Positions 7,491-53,829 of a stretch of 64,000 nucleotides of DNA are shown here, piece after piece. The DNA comes from an uncultured virus (IMG/VR IMGVR_UViG_3300002461_000499) (taxonomy: Duplodnaviria; Heunggongvirae; Uroviricota; Caudoviricetes), in the IMG/VR virus record IMGVR_UViG_3300002461_000499; one strand, given 5' to 3'. Positions within the stretch are counted from its first letter, which is position 1. Each line of letters begins with the position of its first letter. A model generated the notes under the pieces. That model ran no database searches. It was not told the DNA's origin and worked only from the letters and a program-made list of their open reading frames with translations. The translations under genes and the position numbers were made by a program.

Positions 7491-8055
7491 GAAAGGAAAT
7501 ATCACCGACATCGTTTTCGACGATCACAATGCGAACGAAGGCACCGAACGCGGTCAACAACTGATCGAGCAATCAATCGGCAGCCTGGGCCTGGGTCGTT
7601 CCGTCGTCGTCGACAAGAACAACAAGTTAATTGCAGGTAACAAGACGACAACCGGTGCGATTGACAACGGCGTCGACAAGGTCATTTTTGTCGATACGAC
7701 CGGGGATGAACTTGTCGTCGTCCGCCGAACCGATCTTGACCTCGACGACAACGACGATCAGCGGGCGCGGGCGCTTGCCCTTGCTGACAACTACACGGCA
7801 GCCGAAAATTTGAAATGGAACCCGAGCGAAATGTCGATTCACTTCGACGCCGTTATCGCGATGGATATGCCCGATTTTAAATTCGACCTGAAAGTCGACG
7901 ACCCCGGAAACAAGAAAGGCAAACACGACGACCTTTCGGGCAACCTGGAAACACTCTACAAAATCGAAATCGAGTTCGACGACGAAACAGCACAGCGCGA
8001 AGCGTACGAAAAACTTGAACAAATGGGTTATGTATGCCGAATTTTGACATTATAA
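7477..8055 (+). CDS. ParB/Srx-like N-terminal domain protein
   Basis: DDHNAN...IEQSI..LGLGRSVVVDKNNKLIAGNKT...ALALADN. Confidence 0.75.
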   Translation: MATVKKGNITDIVFDDHNANEGTERGQQLIEQSIGSLGLGRSVVVDKNNKLIAGNKTTTGAIDNGVDKVIFVDTTGDELVVVRRTDLDLDDNDDQRARALALADNYTAAENLKWNPSEMSIHFDAVIAMDMPDFKFDLKVDDPGNKKGKHDDLSGNLETLYKIEIEFDDETAQREAYEKLEQMGYVCRILTL

Positions 8056-8729
8056 AAACCGTCAACGTCGCATCGACTTTCCGTAACGCTTCCGTGATCG
8101 GTATGTTCGACCTGAAACCCGATGCGCAAACAGAAAGGTTCGCCGGATCGTTTGAATTCCCCGAGGGCTGGCAAATCGGCGTCATCGTCGGCAATTCCGG
8201 CACTGGCAAGTCAACAATTGCGAAAGAACTGTTCGGGGCGAATTTCATCGAAGGCGGCGGGCAAATCCCGAAAGATGTTTCTATCGTTGATGCGATGCCC
8301 GTCGGCGCCGGTATGCAGGAAATAACAGCGACGTTCAATGCGGTCGGGTTCTCGTCGCCGCCGTCCTGGCTCAAACCCTACGACGTGCTGTCGAACGGCC
8401 AGAAAATGCGGGCCGACCTTGCTTTTCATATCCTGGAAGAAAGACCGCTGATTGCCTTCGACGAATTCACATCCGTCGTCGACCGTACTGTCGCACAGAT
8501 CGGATCGTTCGCCGTGCAAAAGGCAATCCGCCGGACGAAAAAGCAATTCGTCGCCGTGACCTGTCATTTCGACGTCATCCCCTGGCTTATGCCCGACTGG
8601 GTGTTCGACACGAACGACATGACTTTCCGCGTTATGTCCGAAAAAAAAAACGACCCGACATTCGCGTCGACATATTCCAAACAAAAGATAAATCAGTCTG
8701 GAAGGTGTTTGCAAAGCACCATTATTTGA
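8034..8729 (+). CDS. ABC-type ATPase (N-terminal half of a probable ATPase-GNAT fusion)
   Basis: Walker A GNSGTGKST, signature LSNGQKMR, Walker B IAFDEFTSVVD, H-loop VTCH; no transmembrane partner. Confidence 0.88.
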   Translation: MPNFDIIKTVNVASTFRNASVIGMFDLKPDAQTERFAGSFEFPEGWQIGVIVGNSGTGKSTIAKELFGANFIEGGGQIPKDVSIVDAMPVGAGMQEITATFNAVGFSSPPSWLKPYDVLSNGQKMRADLAFHILEERPLIAFDEFTSVVDRTVAQIGSFAVQKAIRRTKKQFVAVTCHFDVIPWLMPDWVFDTNDMTFRVMSEKKNDPTFASTYSKQKINQSGRCLQSTII

Positions 8730-9121
8730 ATCACAGTTTCAATAAATCCGCTGATACATTCGTCATGTACGCAAACGGGGAATTGTGCGGATTTACTTCG
8801 ACCCTTACTTTCGTACATCCAAAAGTCAAAAACACGAAACAGGGGCACCGTACCGTTATCCTGCCGGATTTTCAAGGCGTCGGCCTGGGCGTTTACTTGC
8901 GTGACTTCATTGCCGAGCATTACCGACAGAACGGGTTTTCATACATCACAACGACGTCGAACCCCGCCCTTGTTCATTCGATGAAAAATTCCCCGAAATG
9001 GATATGCACCCGATACGGGCGGACGGTCGCGGTCGCCGGGGCGCAAAAGGGAATCGGGAGTTTAAAGAAAACTATATCGGGCGGCGCAAGGATCACAACG
9101 TCATGGCGTTACATAGGTTAA
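8642..9121 (+). CDS. GNAT (Mom-like) acetyltransferase domain, probably reached by -1 recoding at the A10 run
   Basis: -1 frame reads KKKRPDIRVDIF..WKVFAKHHYL...RTVILPDFQGVGLG (acetyl-CoA motif A Q-G-x-G) ..TSNPAL. Confidence 0.75.
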   Translation, partial: KKKRPDIRVDIFQTKDKSVWKVFAKHHYLNHSFNKSADTFVMYANGELCGFTSTLTFVHPKVKNTKQGHRTVILPDFQGVGLGVYLRDFIAEHYRQNGFSYITTTSNPALVHSMKNSPKWICTRYGRTVAVAGAQKGIGSLKKTISGGARITTSWRYIG

Positions 9122-13146: not shown

Positions 13147-13413
13147 ATGAACGAATGGCCCTTTAATGGAAAATCTGCCTGGTCAACCTTGTCACCGGGT
13201 CAAAAATTCGCGGCGTTCGTCGGCGTCCCGATCTTTCATTTGATGTTTCGGTCGGCGCTTTACCTTGTCGATACTTCAATCCCCTGGCTTTGGCTTCGCA
13301 TCTTGTTTGCCTTTTCGCTGTTTTTCATATTGCCATGGGTTTATGTAAACGGTATCGGTACATTAATTGCAATCGGGTTTGAAATAGTATTGAAAGCGAC
13401 GCGGCGAAAATGA
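13147..13413 (+). CDS. Small membrane protein
   Basis: Two to three hydrophobic segments; ATGA overlap with terL. Confidence 0.6.
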   Translation: MNEWPFNGKSAWSTLSPGQKFAAFVGVPIFHLMFRSALYLVDTSIPWLWLRILFAFSLFFILPWVYVNGIGTLIAIGFEIVLKATRRK

Positions 13414-14927
13414 AAGAAGAAATCGGGCCACAACCGGGGTTTCAGGAAAAGGCGGTCGATTGTGCCGCTGATATTGCAATCATCGGCGGCGCTGCCGGTG
13501 GTGGAAAATCTTGGTGTTTGCTTTACGATCCGGTAAAGTATGTGTTCGACGGTTCACCCGGTTTCAACGGCATTATTTTTCGTCGAGAATTAACACAGAT
13601 CAAGACGACCGGCGGTTTATGGGACAAGGCAAAAGAACTGTTCAGTAAAATGCCCGCCGGTTTCCGTCCCGCTGCATTCGGCGGCAACACACATTTCAGG
13701 TTCAAGTTCCCCGGCGGCTTCGATTTACAGCTCGCACACCTACACGACGACAAAACAATTTATCATTATCAGGGCACGGAAATCGCCTATATTGCTTTTG
13801 ATGAATTGACGCATTTCACCGAGGATCAATTTTTTTACATGCTGTCGCGTAACAGGTCGACAGGCGGCGTTGAACCTTACGTCAGGGCATCGACGAACCC
13901 CCAGGGCGAAGGATGGGTCAAACGTCTTGTTGCACCCTGGATTTATCCTGACGATTATCACATCGAAGGTTTGCGCGGCGCCCCGATCCCTGAAATGCAA
14001 GGCGTTTTATTATACCTTGCCCGTGTCGATGGCGTCGTAATAATGCGCGAAACACCTGAACAGGTATTGGAATCAATGCCGCCTGACATCGCCGAAACAT
14101 TCCCGGTTGATTCGATTCGCTCGATCACTTTCGTCGCCGGTAAACTTGCCGAGAATCAGATTTTAATGAAGTCAAACCCCGGTTATTTGGGTAACCTGTT
14201 GGGCCTGTCTGAATCAGAACGGGCGCAATTGCTTGACGGTCGTTGGATCAACCTTGACAGCGATGCAATGCGTTTGTATTCAAACAACGCAATTTCTGAT
14301 ATTTTCAGTAATTTTGTTGCCGGTGGCAAAACGCGGTATATCACGGCCGATATTGCGTTCGAGGGTTCCGACCTTTTTGTCATCGCGATTTGGGAAGGCT
14401 GGCGGCTTGTTGAACTTCGCGTGTTCCCGAAATCCCTGGGTGACGAAGTGTTGCGGGAAATACAAAAAGCGGCGTCTGATTGGAGCGTGCCTCGGCGAAA
14501 TATTGCGTTTGATGCGACCGGCGTCGGAAGCCCGTACAAAGGATTTTTGCGCACCTCATACGCGTTTGTTTCAAATGCTATGCCGATACCTGAAAAACCG
14601 AAAACGTTTACACAGGGCAAGCAACAACAGCAAATGAAGCCCCTTTACTATAATCTTCGATCACAAGTGTTCTTTTATTTGCGTGACATAATAGAGAACT
14701 CCGAAATGGAAATCGTTGACGACACATATCGGCGGGAAATCGAGGAAGAATTAAGAGCGATTCGGAAGATGGAAACAATCGACGGAAAATTGCGGATCAT
14801 ACCGAAAAAGCAAATCGTTTCAGCGATTGGTCGTTCACCTGACTTTGCCGACGTGATTGCAATGCGGGCAATTTTTGATTTAATCCCGACATTCACGCCG
14901 CCGCCCCGAATGTTTAAATCATTTTAA
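13410..14927 (+). CDS. terL: Terminase large subunit
   Basis: PQPGFQ, Walker A GGAAGGGKS, Walker B IAFDELTHF, ASTNP, nuclease TADIA..GSD, FDATGVG, GRSPDFAD. Confidence 0.95.
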   Translation: MKEEIGPQPGFQEKAVDCAADIAIIGGAAGGGKSWCLLYDPVKYVFDGSPGFNGIIFRRELTQIKTTGGLWDKAKELFSKMPAGFRPAAFGGNTHFRFKFPGGFDLQLAHLHDDKTIYHYQGTEIAYIAFDELTHFTEDQFFYMLSRNRSTGGVEPYVRASTNPQGEGWVKRLVAPWIYPDDYHIEGLRGAPIPEMQGVLLYLARVDGVVIMRETPEQVLESMPPDIAETFPVDSIRSITFVAGKLAENQILMKSNPGYLGNLLGLSESERAQLLDGRWINLDSDAMRLYSNNAISDIFSNFVAGGKTRYITADIAFEGSDLFVIAIWEGWRLVELRVFPKSLGDEVLREIQKAASDWSVPRRNIAFDATGVGSPYKGFLRTSYAFVSNAMPIPEKPKTFTQGKQQQQMKPLYYNLRSQVFFYLRDIIENSEMEIVDDTYRREIEEELRAIRKMETIDGKLRIIPKKQIVSAIGRSPDFADVIAMRAIFDLIPTFTPPPRMFKSF

Positions 14928-30210: not shown

Positions 30211-31155
30211 ATGCCGAACGAATCACAAAATATTGACCTTGCTTCGCTGCCGTTGAATCGCGACATCGAGCAATTTTTGATGACATCCGAATTCCTCGAA
30301 ATAAATTACGAGTTCGGATGGCAGCAAATGAACGCCTATACGCAAGACTTGATGTTCTTGCAAGCGGGCGGCAAGTTCAAAGACCTGGGCATTTCCGAAC
30401 GTCGCAAGTCGGCGCTTCCGTCGCTGATTGTCCCGCAATCGGCTGAATCGTTCACCCTCGTCGACAATTGGGATATGATGATGGGCGACACGCCGCCCGG
30501 ATCAATTGCCCTTTTGAAACTGTCCGGCGTAATGCGCACACAAAGCGCGATTTCCTCACCTGGAATCGACCGGCTGTCGAACGATATGCGTTCGGCGTAC
30601 AATAATTCAAACATCAAAGGGATCATTGTCGACACGTATTCCGGCGGCGGTGAAAGTTCGGCGGGTAGTGTCTTGAAATCGGTTTATTCTGAACGGAATA
30701 AACCTGTCGTCGTATTCGGGCACCTCGTCGCGTCGGCAGCATTCAGGGCGTCGAGCGGCGCCGACGAAATCGTGATGTCGTCGATGAATGCCGAGGTCGG
30801 TTCACTTGGTACAATGATACCGATTGACTTGAAAATCCTGAACAGGATTCGGGAAACGACAACGACTTTTTACGGGGCCGACGCTCCGAATAAAAATATC
30901 GAGGAACGCGCCGCAATCGCTGGCGACTTTTCCGTCCTGCAAAAACGGGTCGACGAATTGACCCGGCAATTCCATGATGAAATAAAACGCGACCGCAATT
31001 TGCAAGGCGACGCGGCTACAATAAAGGAAACGCTTTCCGGCAAAATGTTCACGGCTGCCGACGGTAAACGTCGCGGCCTTGTCGATGCAATCGGCAACCT
31101 GAACTTTGCAATCCGGCGGGTAAATGCTTTACAATCAAAGTATAAAACATCTTAA
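30211..31155 (+). CDS. Prohead protease, S49/SppA family
   Basis: IIVDTYSGGG, KPVVVF...ASAAF, EVGSLGT, GLVDAIG. Confidence 0.85.
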   Translation: MPNESQNIDLASLPLNRDIEQFLMTSEFLEINYEFGWQQMNAYTQDLMFLQAGGKFKDLGISERRKSALPSLIVPQSAESFTLVDNWDMMMGDTPPGSIALLKLSGVMRTQSAISSPGIDRLSNDMRSAYNNSNIKGIIVDTYSGGGESSAGSVLKSVYSERNKPVVVFGHLVASAAFRASSGADEIVMSSMNAEVGSLGTMIPIDLKILNRIRETTTTFYGADAPNKNIEERAAIAGDFSVLQKRVDELTRQFHDEIKRDRNLQGDAATIKETLSGKMFTAADGKRRGLVDAIGNLNFAIRRVNALQSKYKTS

Positions 31156-36271: not shown

Positions 36272-36991
36272 ATGTATCAAAAAAATGCAGTTGACGGACA
36301 AAACGCCAACAATTTTCTGAAAACGACATCCGGCGAAATGGGTTGTTGCGGCAATGTTCCGGCTGAATGTCAAAGCACTGCCACCTATACACAGGCGAAC
36401 AGCGTGTCGGCAATCACTGTCGAAGAAAACGGGGTCGATGTTCCGTTGCCTTTGACGATTGCGGGCGCCGCGACCGCCGCACAGGTGAAAACAGCAATCG
36501 ACGCCGCACTCGTCGCACACGGCTATTATGACGACGACAATGTCGATTATCCGGGTATCGTAGTCACCGACCTGGGAACGACGCTTGAAATCGTCATCAC
36601 GGGCCGGATCAAAGTAAAAACGCTGACGGCAAGCGGCGGAACCTCGACGTTCGACGCCGATTGTATCAAGCAAAACCTTTGCACGTTCGCGGTAACGGGT
36701 TTCACAGCGGGCGCCGGTTCGACACTTCACACGAACGGTTCTGTTCAATCCCTGGGCACGATCACGCCCGGCACGACAACCGCTGCCGACGTGAAAACTG
36801 CCGTCGAGGCTGCATTGCTGGCCGAGGGCATTACCGCCGTCGCAACGGTTACGACAACCGGTTCCGGCGGAACGCAAACGTACAATGTCAGCATTGCCGC
36901 AATCCCGTCGAATACGACGCTTTACCTGGTCGGCGCATCCGGTGTAAAATTTTACCTGGAAACGTCGAATTGTGTTCAGTCGTACAATTGA
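36272..36991 (+). CDS. Probable structural protein with an internal duplication
   Basis: TAAQVKTAIDAAL / TAADVKTAVEAAL repeated; Thr/Ala/Gly-rich. Confidence 0.65.
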   Translation: MYQKNAVDGQNANNFLKTTSGEMGCCGNVPAECQSTATYTQANSVSAITVEENGVDVPLPLTIAGAATAAQVKTAIDAALVAHGYYDDDNVDYPGIVVTDLGTTLEIVITGRIKVKTLTASGGTSTFDADCIKQNLCTFAVTGFTAGAGSTLHTNGSVQSLGTITPGTTTAADVKTAVEAALLAEGITAVATVTTTGSGGTQTYNVSIAAIPSNTTLYLVGASGVKFYLETSNCVQSYN

Positions 36992-37068
36992 CGCCCTGTT
37001 TGCTTTATCGTACCAATACCATACGCCGGGGCGGTTCCGTACCCGCCCCGGCAAACTTTGTTAATCCG

Positions 37069-40000
37069 ATGACAAAATCGCTGAAAATTTTTCTGTTCGT
37101 CCTGTCGTGTCTGTTTTCGTCTGCAATCGCAACGGGACAGACATTTACTTTTGAATGCCTATGCGCTCAACTGACCGGCGACAGCTGTGATTTATGCCCG
37201 ACGAATACGGCCCTGTTTTCACGGTCGTTCAAAGGATTGTTGATTTACAGGAACGGCAATCCTTATAAATGGATTGATTCGCCGTACACATCGCGGCGCC
37301 TGAAAAACAACACGATCCAATTTATCGAGCAAATCCCGAACCCCGATCAGGTTACGATTGCATTGTTTCAAACGCAATTTTCAACGATGCAAGGTTTTGT
37401 CGATTCGACGTACTGTCAGTGCGGCGACGTCGGCACGACATACACGGCCGGGCCTGGAATTGTCATTTCAAACGATACGATTTCGGCGGTCGATACTTCC
37501 TACACAAACGAATTACAGCACATTGACACGCTGTTGATTCTTTCAGGTAGTTTGTACGTTTCCCTTTCAGACGACGGTGTTCCGGCGTCTGTTGTCGTTT
37601 TGCCGGTTCCTGACGGATCGGAAACGAAAGTCAATGCGGGCACCGGAATATCAGTGACCGGGATCGGCACAATTGCGAACCCGTATGTCGTCACGAATAC
37701 GGGTGACTTGTCGAACACGAATGAACTTCAAACGTACGGGCACGCTGGAACGACGACGTACACGAACACGCTGTCGAGCGGCGGCGGTTCCTGGTCGATC
37801 ACCGGCGCGGGCATTGCCGTAATCAGTCAGACCGGGGGCGCGATTACCGTCACGGCAACCGAGGTCGACGGATCGACAACAAATGAATTGCAGACGTACG
37901 GGCACGCTGGAACGACGACGTACACGAACACGCTGTCAGGCGGCGGCGGTTCTTTTACTTTACAGGCATCCGGTATCGCTTCGATCAGTAATTCAGGCGG
38001 TACCGTAACGATTTCAGCGACCGAGGTCGACGGATCAGTCACAAATGAAGGCGTCATCGGCGTCGGCGCTGGCGGCGCATCGTCATCGGTAATCACATCG
38101 ACGACATCCGGCGCGACCGGCGTGACTGTCAACGTTGCCGGTATTCTTTCAATCAGCGAATCAACAGCGTCGAACGGCGGGTCGATTACTTTGACAGCGA
38201 CCGAGGTCGACGGATCAACGTCGAACGAATTGCAGACGTACGGGCACGCTGGAACGACGACGTACACGAACACGCTGTCGAGTGGCGGCGGTTCCTGGTC
38301 GATCACCGGGGCCGGTATCGCTGTCATAAGTCAGACCGGCGGCGCGATTACTGTCACAGCGACCGAGGTTGACGGATCAACGTCGAACGAACTTCAAACG
38401 TACGGGCATTCGGGAACGACGTCGTACACAAATACCCTATCAAGCGGCGGCGGCGCTTTTACATTACAGGCATCCGGCATCGCTTCGATCAGCCATTCAG
38501 GCGGTACCGTAACGATTTCAGCGACCGAGGTTGACGGATCGACAACGAATGAACTGCAAACGTACGGGCACGCTGGAACAACGACGTACACAAATACGCT
38601 GTCAGGCGGCGGCGGTTCCTGGTCAATCACCGGCGCGGGTATCGCTGTCATAAGTCAGACCGGCGGCGCAATTACCGTCACGGCAACCGAGGTCGACGGA
38701 TCGGTGACGAATGAAGGTATTATCGGCGTCGGCGCGGGTGGTGCATCGTCATCCGTAATCACTTCGACGACGTCCGGGGCGACCGGCGTGACTGTCAATG
38801 TGTCGGGCATCCTTTCGATCAGCGAATCAACGGCGTCGAACGGCGGTTCGATTACGCTGACGGCAACCGAGGTCGACGGATCAACGACAAACGAAGTTCA
38901 AACGATCAGTGCATCGGGCGCCGGGCCGACGTCGTACAATATCGACCTGAACTTGTCAGGCGGTTCGGTTACGGTTGCCGAGGGATCAGGAATTGATTTG
39001 ACCCGTTCAGGCAACACGATCACGATTGCCGCAACAGGATCGACGACCGCTTATGTGAACGGCGGTAACTCATTCGGCGCAAATGCGACGATTGGTTTGA
39101 ATGATAATTTCCGATGGGACTTCAAAACGAACAATCTTGTTCGGGGCGGCATAAATGCGGGCGGTACTTGGTGGATCGGTGCGACGCCGCTGACGACGGC
39201 AGCCTTTAACATCAACGGTTTGCAAGGGAATGGCGGCATTTTAATTGCTGGCGGCGGATCACTCGTCGGCCCTGACTTTATCACTTTGACCGGATCAGGC
39301 AGCGGATCAGACGCGACACTTTTGACCGGCGCAATGAGCATGGTAAACGGAACCGTTCTGATAAACGCCGAAAACACATCGTCAACAGGTAGCGGGGGGG
39401 CTGTTATACAAACTGTTGTTGCGGGCGCATCCACAGGCGACCCGAAATTTCAGGCTGAAACAGCAACAACAATTTGGACATGGGGCATTGACAACAGCAT
39501 TGCCGGGGAACCCTGGAAACTTCGACCTGCTGACGACATCGGTTCGACCGCCCTGGGTGTGACCGTTCTTGTATCTGGATTTACCGGCGTCAATCAAGCG
39601 GCACCGGTTCAGGAATTGCAAGTCACCGGAACCGGCGGCATCGGCTTTCCGAGGGGCACGACCGCGCAACGCCTTGCGTCGCCGACGATCCCGATAATTC
39701 GTGCAAATAACGAATACGGCGGAACCGAAATTTATGATCCGTCAAAAGGTCAATGGTATCGGTATTCTTGCACGTCGTCACCTACGTTTGCCGTCGGGGC
39801 GTCGGCCGGAACCGGTGCGTCGGCCGGTATTGTTGCCGGAACCGGGTCGAATGACTTGACAGGCGTTTTTTCTGTCACAACAGGAACAACCCCAGGCACG
39901 GGAACCTATGTGACGGCGACATTTTCATTTGCTTTTGATGGAACGACGACCGTCGTGCTGATTACGCCAGCAAACGACGCCGCGATGACAGCGTCGAATT

Positions 40001-40101
40001 TGTGGCGCAGGGACGTTCAATCAAATACGGGTTTCACGCTTCGCGGTGTTGGCTTGCCTGCATCGACGACGTTTCAGTTCAATTATCAAGTGATGCAATA
40101 A
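37069..40101 (+). CDS. Tail fibre/adhesin-like repeat protein with signal peptide
   Basis: Start ATG 37069 (MTKSLKIFLFVLSCLFSSAIATG/Q); TNELQT..TEVDG repeats; C-terminal PRGTTAQR fibre motif. Confidence 0.75.
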   Translation: MTKSLKIFLFVLSCLFSSAIATGQTFTFECLCAQLTGDSCDLCPTNTALFSRSFKGLLIYRNGNPYKWIDSPYTSRRLKNNTIQFIEQIPNPDQVTIALFQTQFSTMQGFVDSTYCQCGDVGTTYTAGPGIVISNDTISAVDTSYTNELQHIDTLLILSGSLYVSLSDDGVPASVVVLPVPDGSETKVNAGTGISVTGIGTIANPYVVTNTGDLSNTNELQTYGHAGTTTYTNTLSSGGGSWSITGAGIAVISQTGGAITVTATEVDGSTTNELQTYGHAGTTTYTNTLSGGGGSFTLQASGIASISNSGGTVTISATEVDGSVTNEGVIGVGAGGASSSVITSTTSGATGVTVNVAGILSISESTASNGGSITLTATEVDGSTSNELQTYGHAGTTTYTNTLSSGGGSWSITGAGIAVISQTGGAITVTATEVDGSTSNELQTYGHSGTTSYTNTLSSGGGAFTLQASGIASISHSGGTVTISATEVDGSTTNELQTYGHAGTTTYTNTLSGGGGSWSITGAGIAVISQTGGAITVTATEVDGSVTNEGIIGVGAGGASSSVITSTTSGATGVTVNVSGILSISESTASNGGSITLTATEVDGSTTNEVQTISASGAGPTSYNIDLNLSGGSVTVAEGSGIDLTRSGNTITIAATGSTTAYVNGGNSFGANATIGLNDNFRWDFKTNNLVRGGINAGGTWWIGATPLTTAAFNINGLQGNGGILIAGGGSLVGPDFITLTGSGSGSDATLLTGAMSMVNGTVLINAENTSSTGSGGAVIQTVVAGASTGDPKFQAETATTIWTWGIDNSIAGEPWKLRPADDIGSTALGVTVLVSGFTGVNQAAPVQELQVTGTGGIGFPRGTTAQRLASPTIPIIRANNEYGGTEIYDPSKGQWYRYSCTSSPTFAVGASAGTGASAGIVAGTGSNDLTGVFSVTTGTTPGTGTYVTATFSFAFDGTTTVVLITPANDAAMTASNLWRRDVQSNTGFTLRGVGLPASTTFQFNYQVMQ
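37718..38900 (+). repeat. Coding tandem repeats, seven units of three types (A-B-C-A-B-A-C)
   Basis: Units of about 54-61 aa bounded by NE(L/G)...TATEVDGS. Confidence 0.9.
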
Positions 40102-40682
40102 TGCCGACCGTAAATTTAACATCTCCGAATCTCGACATTCAGGTCAATGAAGGCGACACGCTGGAATTTTCCGTCGTCGTGAATAGTACGGCCATAACGA
40201 ATTTAACGGGATGGGATTTCGTCTTTATAGCAAAAAGGAAAACCGGGCAAGTAGAGATCGAAACAGCCCTTGGCGAATACATCACGCAAACCGGGCCGCT
40301 TGCATTAAAAGTCAGCATTCCGCCCGAGGAAATCGACGGCATTGTCGGTTATGGAACATATTTGTTCAGGGCAATTAATCCTGACAATGTAAAAAGGGGT
40401 TGGTTTTGTGGCAAATTAACGCTTGGGAATCCTTGTTGTAACAATGAATCAGGCGAGGGCAACGGCATCACCGTCAACATTTCCGACTATGTAATCACGC
40501 TCGATTTTGACGCCGGTATGCCCCCCGATGTCGGCGGATACTTTGCTACTCTTTTTGCAACTCCATACCCAAACGATACAGCCGCCCGGAATGCCGGACT
40601 TGACACTGGCGACCCGTATGTTTTCGCCCTGAATACCGATGTCGGAATCGCGTACACTTTAAAATTTGTACAACCTTTATGA
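40101..40682 (+). CDS. Probable baseplate/fibre adaptor protein (BppU-like)
   Basis: DIQVNEGDTLEF...NLTGW pattern; between fibre genes. Confidence 0.55.
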   Translation: MPTVNLTSPNLDIQVNEGDTLEFSVVVNSTAITNLTGWDFVFIAKRKTGQVEIETALGEYITQTGPLALKVSIPPEEIDGIVGYGTYLFRAINPDNVKRGWFCGKLTLGNPCCNNESGEGNGITVNISDYVITLDFDAGMPPDVGGYFATLFATPYPNDTAARNAGLDTGDPYVFALNTDVGIAYTLKFVQPL

Positions 40683-43600
40683 GAAACTTAATTTTCCTGC
40701 TTTGTTTTTTGCCTTGCATGATGTTCGGGCAAACCGGAACCTGGCCCGTCGCATACGGAAACGGCGCCCCGAGTTACACGCCGAGCGGCGCGGGCACGCA
40801 CATCTATATCGACAGGCTTACGAATGACATTTATACTTATTCGACAACCTGGATTTTAAAAGGCCGGGGCATTGACCAGATCACGGGAACGATTGCCCCG
40901 CTTTATACACCGGGGCCGGGACAATCGCAATTCGCGATAAATAATGCAACCCCGGCGGAATTGTACCGGCACATCGGCGGCGGCGTCTGGCAGTGCATCA
41001 ACTGCATACCTGATCCCGGCGGCGACCTGTCCGGCACGATTGACGACATCACCGTCGAAGCGATTCAAAATATTCGCGTATCGACCGACGATCCCGTATT
41101 AAATGAGGTGATGAAATTCGATGGCACCGAATGGGCGCCCGGTAAGGATAGTGCGGGCGTATCAGACGGGAATAAAGGCGATTTAACAATCTCTTTAAAT
41201 GGTACGGTCTATACTGTAAATCCGGCAGCCATAACCGGGCCGAAAATCTCGCAAGATGGTGCGTTTTTGAATGATGCCTGGCTTTGGAACGGTGACGCGT
41301 GGATACCGTCTACAATCAACAATACCTCAATATCTGCATTTCGATACTGGATGTCGCCTGTCGGGAGCGATGCAAATAGCGGGTTATCTCCCTTGCTTCC
41401 GAAAAAAAATATTTCTTCATTAACAGGGCTTTTAAATTCGCCGAAAAGCGTCGGTTTTAAATCAGGAAGCCTTTGGCGCGAACAGATTTCGGCAGCGTCA
41501 AACAATCTGTCGGTAGGCTCTTATGCACGATCAATTGTGTATCCATACGCTATTTTGGACGGCGCTCAAACAAATAATGCCGGATGGACAAGCGTATCAA
41601 ATTATTTTACGAAATCAATTCCGCACAACATCACCTCATTGGATGGATATAATAATGTGATGGTTATGGAAATTGATACCGCTATGGAGCGGTACGCGCC
41701 ATTTTCGGCAGTTAATTATTTGACATATAAGGTCAACACGTCTTTGGTAAACAGCAATCCGGGGTCTTTTACATATACAAACTCAAATCCTACTATTGTC
41801 GCTATTCGTCCGACCTCTGGGGCGCCCGGATCGAATAAGTACAGGTATGAAGTTGTAATAAGGAATGCGGGTGTTTTGGCATATAGTTACGATAACATCA
41901 ATGTTTCAAACCTTTGGGTTCGTAATGCTGGACAAGGGTACGGGCCTATAAGCGCGGGTGATAACACTACGTTAAACAACGTAATTATTTCCGGCGCTGG
42001 AACACACCACTTTGTAATAAAATCCGGACATATAAATAATGTGTTGTTTGGCAGGGTTAACAAAGACCTTCCAAGTGGAAGTACAGCAGCAACATTTTAT
42101 GAAGTGGCCGGCACCGGCAATGTTTCTTCGATTCGCAATTCTATTTTTTATAAAATCCCGAATGGGTTCATCGCTCACACATCCGGCGGCGGCAATCATC
42201 AAAAAATTGTGATGGATAATTTGTACGCCTTCGGAGACAGCAGTCTATATAGTGGTTATAACTTTTTGGGGGCGGATCAAGTCGATACATTTTTAATCAA
42301 CAGATTATATGTAAATCAGTACGCTGGCGTTGGAAGCCCTTACGGTGCTTATATTGCTATCCGAAATTCCGTTTTTAATAATATTACAGAATTTGTGTTT
42401 CGTTTCGAGCATCCATCATCACCGACACAATTAATCGACCTTGATAATATATTTTGGAAAAGTTACGCTACAAATGCAAATCAAAGCGTACTTAATCATT
42501 TCGCTGGATTGCTATATAAGCCGAATGCAAACGCAACAGTTCGACTTAAAAACAGTACGCTTCATGTAAAAAGCACTTGGACTATTGGGGGCGATAGCAA
42601 TGGCGGGTGGAACTGGGTTTCCAGCGTAACAAATAGTATTGTCATTGCTGAAATTGAAGCGGGACGCGCTGTAAAAAACGGATCGCCTACAATTTCGGAA
42701 AACAATGTATATATTTTACTGAAAGGCGACGGTTTTCATTGGGCTGTGAATCCGGCATTGAACGGAGGAAACCCAAATTGTTTTTCATTGGCTTTATGGA
42801 AATCTATTACGGGGCTTGACCAAAATAGTATTTTCATTGATCTTCGCAATAATCCTTTGGGCTTGCGTGCTGTCTTTTCTGATCCAGACGCCGGTAATTA
42901 TACTTTGCTGCCTGGCGGGCAATATACAGCTCAAATAAATGCTTTAAAGGCCGGGATGTCAACGCCAATTCGTTCCTTTATTGAAACCCCGACAGAAGAG
43001 CAATGCGCTGAATCTGTAATGTCGTCGTCGGTTCCGTTGCTTTTGGACTGGAAGTTGCCGTTCTCGGGTTCAAATTATAACGTTCCGACAAATTATGTCA
43101 AGTGGGCACCACAGGTGCTACACGCAAATCGTATACCTTATGTTACTGCCTTTAATACGATTCAGGACACAACACTGTTAACATATACACCGGGAATAGG
43201 GGTGTTTATGAAGGGAGGGAATAACAGTACAGGGGCGGCACTTGCCGTACAAAATTCAGATGCAGTTCCGCTATTGACGGTAAATAATAATCGCGATGTT
43301 TTAATAGGGGCGCAAAGTAGTACAGCAAATACAACGACTACTGTTCAATTAATTGCAACGGATGGTTCAGATGCGCGAAACTCACCGGGGATTGCCTTGC
43401 ATAGCAACCAAAACGGAAGTGTAAGTCCACCAAATTTAACCTGGCAAACTTATATCAATGGAAATAAAAAAAATATATATCAAATACGCGGGACATTTTC
43501 CTCTGGATTTGTTCAAAGAAGCCCTGAAAATGGCTCTATATGGTTTCAGGGCGCAAGCTTGGATCAAAGCACAGCGGTAACAAACAATGTTACTACATTG

Positions 43601-44122
43601 CCTGAATTATACCCTTATGTTGATTTGCCTCAATTGGCTTATTTCGGCAAAGGTACTATTGTTGTCGGGCGGGATATAGCGTCAAGCAATGACGCACAGG
43701 ACGGGGAAATTCGATCAGGACAGAAAAACAACTCTGTTGTTCCTTATAATTCAGCCGCATCAAATCTGACAATTAAGGCCGGTAGGGGGCTTGGCCCGGT
43801 TGCCTCAAATAAAGGAGAAATATACTTTACGACCCCAGACGGAGCCGCAACCGGAACCGTGCAACCATACACTGTAAAGGGCGCAATAAAACAGGACGGC
43901 TCCGTTTCATTTGGAACTATATCGCCGTCGCCGTCAGCGAAGATGCAGTTGAACAGTGTAACACAAGGTTTTTTGCCGCCACGAATGACGTTATCGCAAC
44001 GTGATGCAATTTCCAGTCCCGCCACTGGATTGATGATTTATTGTACTGATTGTGTTGCGATAGATAGCAGTGTAGGGGTTTCTCAAACTTATAATGGCTC
44101 TGTATGGAAAAGCCATTGGTAA
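40679..44122 (+). CDS. Tail spike/depolymerase-like protein (beta-helix) with signal peptide
   Basis: MRNLIFLLCFLPCMMFG/Q; GSDANSGLSP..P, Asn-rich beta-helix-like core; C-terminal QGFLPPRMT..QRDAI.SPATGLMIY. Confidence 0.7.
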   Translation: MRNLIFLLCFLPCMMFGQTGTWPVAYGNGAPSYTPSGAGTHIYIDRLTNDIYTYSTTWILKGRGIDQITGTIAPLYTPGPGQSQFAINNATPAELYRHIGGGVWQCINCIPDPGGDLSGTIDDITVEAIQNIRVSTDDPVLNEVMKFDGTEWAPGKDSAGVSDGNKGDLTISLNGTVYTVNPAAITGPKISQDGAFLNDAWLWNGDAWIPSTINNTSISAFRYWMSPVGSDANSGLSPLLPKKNISSLTGLLNSPKSVGFKSGSLWREQISAASNNLSVGSYARSIVYPYAILDGAQTNNAGWTSVSNYFTKSIPHNITSLDGYNNVMVMEIDTAMERYAPFSAVNYLTYKVNTSLVNSNPGSFTYTNSNPTIVAIRPTSGAPGSNKYRYEVVIRNAGVLAYSYDNINVSNLWVRNAGQGYGPISAGDNTTLNNVIISGAGTHHFVIKSGHINNVLFGRVNKDLPSGSTAATFYEVAGTGNVSSIRNSIFYKIPNGFIAHTSGGGNHQKIVMDNLYAFGDSSLYSGYNFLGADQVDTFLINRLYVNQYAGVGSPYGAYIAIRNSVFNNITEFVFRFEHPSSPTQLIDLDNIFWKSYATNANQSVLNHFAGLLYKPNANATVRLKNSTLHVKSTWTIGGDSNGGWNWVSSVTNSIVIAEIEAGRAVKNGSPTISENNVYILLKGDGFHWAVNPALNGGNPNCFSLALWKSITGLDQNSIFIDLRNNPLGLRAVFSDPDAGNYTLLPGGQYTAQINALKAGMSTPIRSFIETPTEEQCAESVMSSSVPLLLDWKLPFSGSNYNVPTNYVKWAPQVLHANRIPYVTAFNTIQDTTLLTYTPGIGVFMKGGNNSTGAALAVQNSDAVPLLTVNNNRDVLIGAQSSTANTTTTVQLIATDGSDARNSPGIALHSNQNGSVSPPNLTWQTYINGNKKNIYQIRGTFSSGFVQRSPENGSIWFQGASLDQSTAVTNNVTTLPELYPYVDLPQLAYFGKGTIVVGRDIASSNDAQDGEIRSGQKNNSVVPYNSAASNLTIKAGRGLGPVASNKGEIYFTTPDGAATGTVQPYTVKGAIKQDGSVSFGTISPSPSAKMQLNSVTQGFLPPRMTLSQRDAISSPATGLMIYCTDCVAIDSSVGVSQTYNGSVWKSHW

Positions 44123-44158: not shown

Positions 44159-44545
44159 ATGCTTATTGCCTTTTCATTCGTTCTTTTATTCGTGGCCGGC
44201 GCGACCTGGGGCGTTCACGAAAAAATAAGTCATCACTGGTCGAAATTCGCCGCCCGGTTCCCTGGATTGAACCCGCAATTCTGGAACCCGGCAATTTCCT
44301 GGACAAATAAATATCGTGCATGGCCTGACGATAAACGTCGCACCTGGGTTCCCGTTTTCTTTACCGATGCAAAACATTTGCTTGCATCCGGTTCACAGTT
44401 GGCACTTTTCGCGGGCGGTATGCTGTTGAATATCGGGATCGGCGACGGGCGCCCGTTCTGGTATCACTTGCTTTTTTCGGTTCTTGGCTTTGTTTCTTAC
44501 ACGGTCGGCAACTACATATTTTTTAATCTGATTTATCGCCGATAA
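44159..44545 (+). CDS. Membrane protein (possible lysis component)
   Basis: Three hydrophobic segments, FWNPAISWTNKY, FTDAKH. Confidence 0.65.
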   Translation: MLIAFSFVLLFVAGATWGVHEKISHHWSKFAARFPGLNPQFWNPAISWTNKYRAWPDDKRRTWVPVFFTDAKHLLASGSQLALFAGGMLLNIGIGDGRPFWYHLLFSVLGFVSYTVGNYIFFNLIYRR

Positions 44546-44589
44546 ACTGGCACTACATTTGAACCTGTCGAAACAAAGGCTTTACAATT

Positions 44590-44991
44590 ATGGCGTATTG
44601 GAGTATCATTGACACCGGACTTTCACTTCTTAAAAGGATCGTTCCGATTTTTATTATTGACCGGCGCAAGGATCGTTTTTTCGATAAATGTGCCGCGTTG
44701 TTTATGATTGCACAACAAGACGGAACTATCATCGAAGTGAACGACGCGTTCGCCCGTACACTGGGTTACACAAAGGAATCGCTTTCAGGTACGAAGTTTA
44801 TGCGCCTCGTGCATTCTGCCGATCATGCAAAGACGCGTGACGTCATGGAAGAATTATCAATCGGCGCCGTCCTGCAATGGAATTTCCAAAACAGGTATCG
44901 AAAGGCAAACGGCAGTTACGTCATACTGGAATGGCTCGCGTCAAAAAACGGTTATGACGAAATCTATGCGACGGCCCGAATTATCGAATAA
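44590..44991 (+). CDS. Stand-alone PAS domain protein
   Basis: DGTIIEVNDAFARTLGYTKESLSG..FMRLVHSAD...NRYRKANGSYVILEW, canonical PAS/PAC. Confidence 0.85.
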   Translation: MAYWSIIDTGLSLLKRIVPIFIIDRRKDRFFDKCAALFMIAQQDGTIIEVNDAFARTLGYTKESLSGTKFMRLVHSADHAKTRDVMEELSIGAVLQWNFQNRYRKANGSYVILEWLASKNGYDEIYATARIIE

Positions 44992-45029
44992 AGTTCAATC
45001 AGTTTCTTTTCACCATAAATCATGTACAC

Positions 45030-45473
45030 ATGAAAGTCATTCAAATTCCCATCAACTGGGCAGTTCATATCCCGAAATTCCGTGACCGGGGTTTGGGTAT
45101 CGAAAACCTCGTCGCGGTTGCGATTGATTCTGTCAAGGTTGCCCGAGCGATTGCGACGGCACTGAAAGACGGCATCCAACTGTCGGACGCGTTCACGCTG
45201 TTCAATCAGTTTCCCGCGATTCAGCACGTTGCCGAAATCGCGCCGACTGCATTCAGCGAATTGCGCGACCTGACGCCCGAGGAATCGGCCGAGGCCGCAA
45301 AACGCATCGCCGACGGTACCGGTTTGCCGAACGACGCGTCCCTTTGGGGCAAAGTCCGTCAAGCCCTGGCGCTGTCCGCCCGTACTTACAAAGTCGTTGA
45401 CGACGGCCTCGCTGTCGGTCACGAATGGAAAAACCTGTTCGAGACTTCGCCGGAACTGGCGCAAGCCGCGTAA
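45030..45473 (+). CDS. Hypothetical helical protein
   Basis: ORF between PAS gene and endolysin. Confidence 0.7.
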   Translation: MKVIQIPINWAVHIPKFRDRGLGIENLVAVAIDSVKVARAIATALKDGIQLSDAFTLFNQFPAIQHVAEIAPTAFSELRDLTPEESAEAAKRIADGTGLPNDASLWGKVRQALALSARTYKVVDDGLAVGHEWKNLFETSPELAQAA

Positions 45474-45491
45474 AGTAAAACGGTTTGAATT

Positions 45492-45525
45492 GAAGGGCGG
45501 ACAGGCGAAAGTCGGTTCGCCCTTC
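45492..45525 (+). promoter_or_regulatory. Stem-loop with GAAA tetraloop upstream of the endolysin
   Basis: GAAGGGCGGAC-AGGC-GAAA-GTCG-GTTCGCCCTTC. Confidence 0.6.
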
Positions 45526-45539
45526 TTAATTTTACACCT

Positions 45540-46139
45540 ATGTTCGAGAAATTAAACACAACCGCTTTTTTTGACGGATTGCGTACGGCGTTAAATCAGC
45601 CGATCAGCCCGACGCAAATGCGTTCGGTTTACCTGATCCTGAAACAGATCGACAAACACGAGATCACCGACCGCAATCAAGTCGCGTATATCCTTGCTAC
45701 CTGCTGGCACGAATGCCGGTTCAAGTCGATTCGCGAAATCCGGGCGAAGCCTGGAACGCGGGTTTGGCGAATGCAAAATGCCTACTGGTCGAGCGGGTAC
45801 ATGGGCCGGGGATTTTCACAACTTACCTGGCTGAAAAACTATCGAAAGTTTACACCGGTCGTCGGCGTTGACCTCGTCAGGTACCCGGATAAAGCACTGA
45901 TCCCCGAGATCGGCGCCGAAATTCTTGTTTTCGGAATGAAAAACGGATCGTTCACAGCGGCCGGGCTTTATTCAAAAAACGGCCTGGCAAAGTATTTCCC
46001 GCCGGGCGGTACACCTGGCACTGTAAATTGGATCGGGGCACGATCAATCGTGAACGGTAATTTTCAGGCCGACAAAGTTGCGACGGCAGCTGTAAAAATT
46101 TTGACTGTAATTGTTGCGCATGAATTACCGGTGACGTAG
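45540..46139 (+). CDS. Endolysin, glycoside hydrolase family 19
   Basis: QVAYILATCWHE, YMGRGFSQLTWLKNY, ARSIVNG. Confidence 0.88.
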   Translation: MFEKLNTTAFFDGLRTALNQPISPTQMRSVYLILKQIDKHEITDRNQVAYILATCWHECRFKSIREIRAKPGTRVWRMQNAYWSSGYMGRGFSQLTWLKNYRKFTPVVGVDLVRYPDKALIPEIGAEILVFGMKNGSFTAAGLYSKNGLAKYFPPGGTPGTVNWIGARSIVNGNFQADKVATAAVKILTVIVAHELPVT

Positions 46140-46251
46140 ATTTGTCGGGCAAGAAAGGGGTATCCGGCGGCACGATCAGACATAAATTGTTTTAAATGTC
46201 GCCGGAACGTTCAAACTTTAAACTTTTCATGAGATTATATACGGGAAACCG

Positions 46252-46284
46252 GCCCGGTGCAAAAGCGCACCGGGCTTTTTTTTT
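46252..46284 (+). terminator. Intrinsic terminator ending the late operon
   Basis: GCCCGGTGC-AAAAGC-GCACCGGGC followed by a T run. Confidence 0.85.
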
Positions 46285-46324
46285 GGGAAAAATCAACCTC
46301 ACCCATTGTTTATTAAAATAATGA

Positions 46325-46357
46325 CAGTATTTTTGTCCTGTCAAATTGATTAAACAA
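46325..46357 (+). promoter_or_regulatory. Early promoter, copy 1
   Basis: CAG-TATTTTTG-TCCTGTCAAATTGATTAAACAA; TAnnTTTG -7 box; identical to 48821-48853. Confidence 0.75.
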
Positions 46358-48750: not shown

Positions 48751-48820
48751 GTGTCCTTTTTGACCGGACAAAAATACTTTTAAAAAATATTACGACGCCC
48801 ATTGTGGTGTAAAATAAAGC

Positions 48821-48853
48821 CAGTATTTTTGTCCTGTCAAATTGATTAAACAA
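48821..48853 (+). promoter_or_regulatory. Early promoter, copy 2
   Basis: 33 bp identical to 46325-46357. Confidence 0.75.
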
Positions 48854-53741: not shown

Positions 53742-53782
53742 GACGGGATAAAAAAAATCAAATTTTTATCCCGTCTTTTTTT
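53742..53782 (+). terminator. Intrinsic terminator
   Basis: GACGGGATAAAAA...TTTTTATCCCGTC followed by T run. Confidence 0.75.
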
Positions 53783-53829
53783 GCCATTGTCAATAAAGCC
53801 GTTATTTTTGTCCTGTCAAAATGATTAAC
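53780..53829 (+). promoter_or_regulatory. Promoter, copy 4
   Basis: TTTG-N19-TATTTTTG-TCCTGTCAAAATGATTAAC. Confidence 0.7.

Follow-up and report, generated by a model that had tools for sequence, protein, structure and literature searches.

What does a lone sensor domain do beside the lysis gene of a phage? The question is raised by the genome of an uncultured tailed phage, represented here by a 64,000-nt stretch of DNA (IMG/VR record IMGVR_UViG_3300002461_000499, Caudoviricetes; the whole stretch is called the window below). In it a gene for a small PAS protein stands on the same strand as its neighbors, 44 nt past a membrane-protein gene and two genes before an endolysin gene, at the end of the late operon. 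The original prediction, made from the DNA letters alone, described the order membrane protein, PAS protein, helical protein, hairpin and endolysin, with a TACATTTG box before the PAS gene, and proposed that lysis might be gated by a sensed signal, or that the protein might act as a decoy for host PAS kinases. The order and the box are both present, each element lying where it had been placed. Lysis timing in phages of Bacteroidota is poorly understood; if PAS proteins beside endolysins do regulate lysis, the moment of bursting would be tied to a sensed intracellular state, a kind of control that to our knowledge has been established at the bench only for proteins of quite another sort (T4 RI/RIII and lambda S107, for example). 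Our answer, offered tentatively, is that the PAS protein might be a membrane-proximal cytoplasmic regulator of lysis timing.

The PAS protein and its family

The protein consists of a complete PAS domain, preceded by a short helix and followed by no output domain. Judged against curated cut-offs, it scores 44.2 bits for Pfam PAS_3 (PF08447; cut-off 25.6), 42.4 for PAS_9 (27), 33.3 for PAS (22.6) and 25.8 for PAS_8 (21.8), and 48.6 bits for TIGR00229 (22.9). The AlphaFold2 (AF2) model has a mean predicted local distance difference test score (pLDDT) of 82.6, with 84–95 over the core (residues 34–131), in which strands at 37–42, 46–50, 99–104, 110–119 and 124–131, with helices between them, make up the five-stranded antiparallel PAS sheet. 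The top Foldseek match is PDB 8px4 (template modeling score TMt 0.92–0.94, root-mean-square deviation 1.1–1.2 Å, 32%–33% identity), the PAS domain of the Leptospira interrogans diguanylate cyclase LIC_11128, which is the best match in sequence as well as in fold (E 2.3e-19); no report of a ligand for this domain was found in the accessible portion of the literature. The LIC_11128 domain is part of a larger enzyme, whereas the phage protein stops at residue 133, directly after the PAS core, and hence has no output domain. On this point Pfam, AF2, Foldseek and the hydrophobic moment all agree with what had been read from the translation: a short amphipathic N-terminus and a complete PAS domain, with nothing attached.

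The N-terminal region (residues ~3–33) is modeled as a single helix at low confidence (pLDDT 51–58), and a basic cluster, DRRKDR, comes next. The first ~20 residues are amphipathic (Eisenberg hydrophobic moment 0.45–0.54), and residues 5–23 are borderline hydrophobic (Kyte-Doolittle hydropathy, KD, 1.54). There is no coiled-coil linker, the core beginning at about residue 34. A signal-anchor-release or true transmembrane (TM) helix was considered for this region and rejected as the default reading, as the charged residues D8, K15 and R16 lie inside the helix.

A HMMER search with the PAS protein returns 29,618 matches at E ≤ 0.001, as expected of a PAS domain. Short relatives that align from end to end are P0004 (135 aa, 57%–58% identity) and P0106, to which a profile search adds the full-length relatives P0158 (138 aa, 52%), P0193, P0157 and P0156. 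The seven proteins (the PAS protein and six relatives) are alike in their N-terminal helix, in the RK/YR-RFFD junction and in the core, and the helix has a KD of 1.25–1.92 (19-residue window) over the PAS protein, P0004, P0158 and P0193. At E ≤ 1e-5 there are 168 short PAS proteins of 69–237 aa, of which ~160 align to the core only, indicating that PAS proteins without an output domain are common in bacteria. A zinc ribbon is present in many of these core-only proteins, and a number of them have names that come from Gemmatimonadota metagenome-assembled genomes (MAGs). The zinc-ribbon–PAS proteins of 146–154 aa from these MAGs resemble the phage protein in their PAS_3-type core (35%–42% identity) and in having no output domain, and differ in being cellular and in aligning to residues ~25–130 only, without the N-terminal helix. 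To judge from these alignments, what is particular to the phage protein is its N-terminal helix and its phage setting.

No full-length relative was found in IMG/VR, where the single match (L004) is a 632-aa multi-PAS open reading frame (ORF), in a pattern scan of GTDB representative genomes, or among GenBank phages searched at E up to 1. A metagenome scan yielded 79 loci, cellular-looking and at most 59% identical over partial stretches; the N-terminal helix region is missing from all of them. No cellular PAS domain is more than 42% identical to the protein, and the closest cellular matches are taxonomically uninformative. The locus itself recurs in other samples. Near-identical DNA is present in activated-carbon runs, from which the window itself may derive, and in one independent wastewater run (X4), where a 1,277-bp contig spans the 3' end of the PAS gene, the helical gene, the hairpin and the endolysin gene at ~99% identity. 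The changes seen in other samples are all synonymous in the PAS gene (three of three) and in the helical gene (two of two); in the endolysin gene five are synonymous and three are non-synonymous. By these sequence comparisons the PAS gene is shown to be real, conserved and under purifying selection.

PAS genes beside endolysins

The enzyme at the end of the locus is a GH19-type endolysin. It matches PHROG 181, named endolysin, at E 8.3e-19, and tblastn finds 303 phage records with it, including annotated GH19 endolysins at ~31%–31.7% identity over 94%–98% of its length. The Pfam GH19 score is below the cut-off (PF00182, 17.4 versus 25.5 bits, residues 82–118 only). A phmmer search of the PDB with the endolysin alone gave no match; an endolysin profile that includes g077, the endolysin of Cellulophaga phage phi14:2, matches PDB 4ok7 at E 2.7e-14. 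Residues invariant between the two endolysins are H57, E58, E66 and G89-R90-G91..Q94.T96...N100-Y101. The closest relatives, at 43%–44% identity, are on three viral contigs, L001–L003. One 192-nt contig from an RNA run (X10) falls inside the endolysin gene only. Residues 180–198 of the endolysin (46077–46133) form a hydrophobic or amphipathic tail (KD 1.64) that has no counterpart in the relatives of L001 and L003; C-terminal tails of this kind are known to aid membrane action in some endolysins from phages of Gram-negative bacteria.

The original prediction asked whether PAS genes recur beside endolysins, and they do so in two cultured phages. In phi14:2 (NC_021806.1), g078, annotated as a PAS fold protein (70355–70984), overlaps the start of the endolysin gene g077 (69795–70358) by 4 nt, and g077 scores 44.9 bits for GH19. 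In Chryseobacterium phage MA9V-2 (OR513085.1), MA9V2_249, annotated as a regulatory protein, is a g078 relative (30% identity) two genes after the GH108 gene MA9V2_247, in the order GH108 enzyme, lipoprotein-like gene, PAS protein, single-TM coiled-coil protein.

The likeness of g078 to the window's protein is one of layout: a PAS protein without an output domain, directly upstream of a GH19 endolysin in a Bacteroidota phage, with an N-terminal hydrophobic helix before a PAS domain predicted to be cytoplasmic. The two differ in arrangement, g078 abutting its endolysin whereas the helical gene and the hairpin intervene in the window, and also in construction and lineage. The 209 residues of g078 comprise a true TM anchor, a coiled coil of ~55 residues and a PAS_4-like domain (22.8 bits, just under the cut-off). 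MA9V2_249, likewise a PAS protein among lysis-type genes, shares the TM anchor and the lineage of g078, and its neighboring endolysin is of another class, GH108. KD values for the anchors are 1.84 in g078 and up to 1.89 across this pair (1.84–1.89), compared with 1.54 in the window's helix. There is no detectable sequence relation between the window's PAS family and g078 (hhalign probability 0.3%), and when g078 and MA9V2_249 are run by tblastn against the window, no match is better than E 0.14.

That two PAS lineages with no relation in sequence occupy this position speaks for selection, and against common ancestry, as the cause. A PAS gene lies within two genes of an endolysin in both of the cultured lineages found with the g078 query, the only ones examined; these cases were picked through their proximity to endolysins, and the association is suggestive rather than measured. 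A bolder reading, which we think rather unlikely, is that PAS domains have been recruited independently at least twice to the endolysin neighborhood in Bacteroidota phages, once as a PAS_3 core with an amphipathic N-terminal helix (the window) and once as a PAS_4-like core with a TM anchor and a coiled coil (phi14:2 and MA9V). Together these would be a kind of cytoplasmic sensor not yet described, by which an intracellular cue gates the triggering of the holin or the release of the endolysin, the helix in the window's protein being a reversible tether dependent on the state of the membrane.

The original prediction knew of no characterized system of this kind. This stands insofar as no bench study of a PAS protein with a holin, an endolysin or phage lysis was found in the literature, subscription journals not being covered, and no functional study of g078 was found in the accessible portion of the literature. 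It needs amending in that annotated examples exist in GenBank and that one PAS protein of a phage has been characterized, albeit with a DNA-binding output. VqmA_Phage of vibriophage VP882 is described as a receptor with a PAS domain that determines the time at which the phage kills its host; it has a C-terminal helix-turn-helix (HTH) DNA-binding domain and acts on qtip transcription at the switch from lysogeny to lysis (10.1101/2021.04.15.439952). In contrast to VqmA as described there, the window's protein has neither an HTH nor any other output domain and is encoded in a late operon; VqmA structures are also absent from the 22 PDB sequences that it matches at E ≤ 1e-5. The closest counterparts, g078 and its Chryseobacterium relatives, are thus annotated but unstudied, and VqmA is the closest characterized system in spirit. 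What is new here is the finding, near an endolysin in the late operon of a phage, of a PAS protein that lacks an output domain and whose N-terminal helix is distinctive, as an independent instance of a recurring theme.

Lysis timing and the alternatives

Antiholins and lysis-inhibition proteins (T4 RI/RIII, lambda S107, P1 LydB) are small, are encoded near lysis genes and set timing by contact with the holin, as proven at the bench; we know of no PAS domain in any of them. The role proposed for the PAS protein would be analogous to theirs. Made late and remaining in the cytoplasm, it would be tethered by its amphipathic, weakly hydrophobic N-terminal helix, either to the cytoplasmic side of the membrane or to a partner in the membrane. 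The PAS core would shift state with a cytoplasmic cue (a ligand, or redox or energy status) and would contact other proteins in a state-dependent way, as an antiholin or holin co-factor might, and the lethal membrane step would thereby be delayed or promoted. A basic cluster that flanks a membrane helix stays cytoplasmic under the positive-inside rule, so the cluster after the helix would place the PAS domain in the cytoplasm. Membrane association, sensing, holin contact and an effect on lysis timing are what we infer from this architecture and from the position of the gene (Table 1).

Table 1. Features of the PAS–endolysin locus, in order along the window
Feature	Position	Strand	Description and evidence
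Membrane protein, 128 aa	44159–44545	+	Three hydrophobic segments (KD)
TACATTTG box	44554–44561	+	Within the 44-nt intergenic gap, 36 nt upstream of the PAS start
PAS protein, 133 aa	44590–44991	+	Pfam, TIGR00229, AF2, Foldseek
Helical protein, 147 aa	45030–45473	+	Soluble, all-helical; AF2 all-alpha, pLDDT 84.5
Hairpin	45492–45525	+	11-bp G+C-rich stem, then CUUCUUAAUUUUA; folding, shuffles
GH19-type endolysin, 199 aa	45540–46139	+	PHROG 181, tblastn, alignment
Intrinsic-terminator-like site	46251–46286	+	10-bp stem, 8 G-C pairs, T8; ends the late gene run

No holin or spanin family was recognized among 79 window ORFs with PHROGs or among six ORFs with Pfam, as had been noted from the sequence; nor was an ORF with a lipobox found in the window outside the tail-fiber gene. 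The gene before the PAS gene is a candidate holin by position only. Its product has hydrophobic segments at residues 1–19 (KD 2.16), 74–92 (1.45) and 104–122 (1.61) and a C-terminus, ...LIYRR, with only two charged residues, and has no family match, holin included, in Pfam, PHROG, NCBIfam or PADLOC. Its relatives, at 41%–51% identity, come from three other contig groups (L084/L087/L091, L088 and L089/L090; family loci at 44159–44545 in the window, L084:2450–2899, L088:4917–5372 and L089:4729–5133), and some members of the family have an extra, signal-like N-terminal segment.

Several observations weigh against a part in lysis timing. The membrane protein family has an invariant loop rich in His, Glu, Lys, Asp and Trp (WG.HEK..HHW..RFP..WNP..SW.NKY..F.DAKH.LAS), conserved far beyond what is usual for holin loops, and the pattern of conservation looks more like that of an enzyme or a specific binder than that of a holin. 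The relatives sit in other surroundings: after the tail fiber and before the head genes in L084, among unrelated genes of a 127-kb contig in L088, and among early genes in L089/L090. A homologue of the window's endolysin is near the membrane protein relatives in none of the three other contig groups, where other endolysin classes were not scanned for. The sole locatable relative of the helical protein (in L084) lies between head genes and a tape-measure-like gene. The genomic context of the PAS family is known from this window only, and relatives of the endolysin, membrane and helical proteins occur without a PAS gene (present in zero of three records, which are fragments at 29%–42% completeness), which makes the PAS gene optional. 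Neither neighbor of the PAS protein is a demonstrated lysis protein: since their relatives are found elsewhere, the helical fold is unmatched and no holin or spanin is recognized, both are lysis proteins by position only.

The helical protein belongs to a virus-dominated family (alignment of 20 sequences), and Atlas look-ups return only viral clusters of hypothetical proteins. Foldseek finds no significant match for it in the PDB (best E 0.44), and in a wide VIA structure search the best Z score is 6.0, below the meaningful level for helical bundles. The best BFVD match, to a protein named Holin (E 0.48, template modeling score 0.31), was discarded as not meaningful.

The term lysis cassette, used in the original prediction, is therefore only partly apt. 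It holds in that the genes belong to the same late, same-strand run as the endolysin; it fails in that relatives of the neighbors sit elsewhere without a PAS gene or a homologue of the window's endolysin, and in that the phages with the closest endolysins carry holin- and spanin-like genes in the slot, and no PAS gene. Between tail fiber and endolysin, L001–L003 encode an 88-aa single-TM coiled-coil protein, a 106-aa lipoprotein-like protein and a 154-aa multi-TM protein, plausibly a spanin pair and a holin, indicating that this slot is used for lysis accessories.

The same slot can be read in another way. The PAS and helical genes might be a moron-like unit of two accessory genes that brings its own promoter and terminator, has been inserted in a variable slot and serves a function unrelated to lysis, for instance in host physiology or in another phage process; we regard this as possible, if doubtful. 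Different genes fill the slot in L001–L003, and the PAS gene is absent from these contigs and from the L084 contig. Relatives of both genes, P0158 and P0278 (the latter 73% identical to the helical protein), also appear to travel together, each being on a contig of 45,455 bp that we take to be one and the same. The signals in question are consensus matches. The box before the PAS gene fits TAnnTTTG, which we take to be the −7 promoter consensus of Bacteroidota, and stands in its gap as other intergenic boxes do. After the helical gene comes a strong hairpin whose tail is rich in U. Folded with its surroundings (76 nt), it reaches −27.8 kcal/mol (z = −4.56; none of 200 shuffles folds as well), no base differences are listed inside it in run X4, and it may be terminator-like or else an attenuator or stabilizer. 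On sequence grounds, box and hairpin would fit an independent two-gene unit as well as they fit a regulator of lysis.

Three things count against such a unit. The three clear promoters of the window (46328, 48824 and 53803) have an extended CCATTGT...AATAA motif, which the box lacks. Only 14 nt separate the end of the hairpin from the endolysin start, which leaves no room for a promoter between them; endolysin transcripts must therefore cross the PAS and helical genes, and full insulation of the unit from the late operon is impossible. Finally, unrelated PAS genes beside endolysins in phi14:2 and MA9V-2 would be unexpected for random cargo.

Less probable still, and in our view unlikely, is that the PAS protein is a dominant-negative decoy, pairing with PAS domains of host sensor kinases or cyclic di-GMP enzymes and so, late in infection, blunting a stress or signaling response of the host: PAS domains commonly pair via the β-sheet and N-cap helix, the nearest matches outside the small family are PAS repeats in multi-PAS proteins of 500–4,800 aa (best ~30%–40% identity) and the best solved match is from a diguanylate cyclase, but the low identity to cellular PAS domains leaves no close host donor, a gene expressed last in the late operon would come late to a takeover of the host, a decoy would have no need of the conserved hydrophobic N-terminal helix, and the recurrence beside endolysins is left unexplained.

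The phage, its promoters and its host

All substantial ORFs in the window are on the + strand, and no tRNA genes were found in it. PHROGs place the large terminase at 13410–14927 and the head maturation protease at 30211–31155, and name methyltransferases, an exonuclease, NinB, a replication initiator, a resolvase and RNase H elsewhere in the window; no integrase was recognized among the 79 ORFs scanned. Two proteins of ~1,146 aa (36661–44122) have N- and C-terminal tail-fiber segments common to other viral contigs. In the protein collection, the contig that encodes the PAS protein is 68,223 bp long. This, with the gene content named by PHROGs, indicates that the window is most of an uncultured tailed phage of roughly 68 kb.

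The host is probably a member of Bacteroidota, a prediction that draws on three features. A Shine-Dalgarno-like pentamer precedes just two of 78 ORFs, and AGGAG or GGAGG precedes none of the 78. The TAnnTTTG boxes are concentrated between genes: of the 17 on the + strand, seven are intergenic, in 6.3% of the DNA, compared with ~1.1 expected by length, and five of the seven stand 36–51 nt ahead of a start codon. Over the window as a whole there is no enrichment of the general pattern TANNTTTG (38 found versus 35.5 ± 6.5 expected). Full-length relatives of the terminase among cultured phages occur only in phages of Bacteroides, Phocaeicola and Parabacteroides, at 26%–29% identity.

Three near-identical promoter-like motifs (46299–46335, 48795–48831 and 53774–53810) head early or replication genes, and the gene after the terminator-like site that ends the late run starts behind one of them. 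Each consists of CCATTGT, ~8 nt, AATAA(A/T)G, ~4 nt and TATTTTTG, ending 36 nt before the ATG, with the start of the box 43 nt upstream. From this layout they are probably a promoter class that belongs to the phage itself and serves early or middle genes.

The only other small multi-TM ORF in the window (13147–13413, + strand; 88 aa, three hydrophobic segments) lies directly before the large terminase. Scans of NCBIfam and PADLOC, the sole libraries used for it, assign it to no family, and it is an alternative candidate for a holin-sized membrane protein, far from the endolysin.

Some further features of the late genes and of their counterparts were noted. The C-terminal ~55–75 residues of the tail fiber (43886–44107; ...LPPRMT..RDAI..P..GL.IY...) are 43%–57% identical to those of otherwise different fibers (L001:1108–3372 and L003:1–1662) and look like a conserved module; the N-terminal ~100 residues are also common to L001. 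Between the tail fiber and the lysis-like genes, L001 (4065–4796) and L003 (2348–3079) encode a 243-aa protein with no PHROG match, whose HSGHG...DTCYSE pattern is reminiscent of a caspase-like His/Cys dyad. Nearer the start of the window, ORF 5967–6419 matches a PHROG named phosphoheptose isomerase, a gene annotated in phi14:2 too (g060) and hence an accessory gene common to both phages. The overlapping ORFs 8034–8729 and 8705–9121 match successive parts of phrog_11143 (profile positions 8–203 and 217–350, roughly its two halves) and could be a split or frameshifted gene, or one read through a programmed shift.

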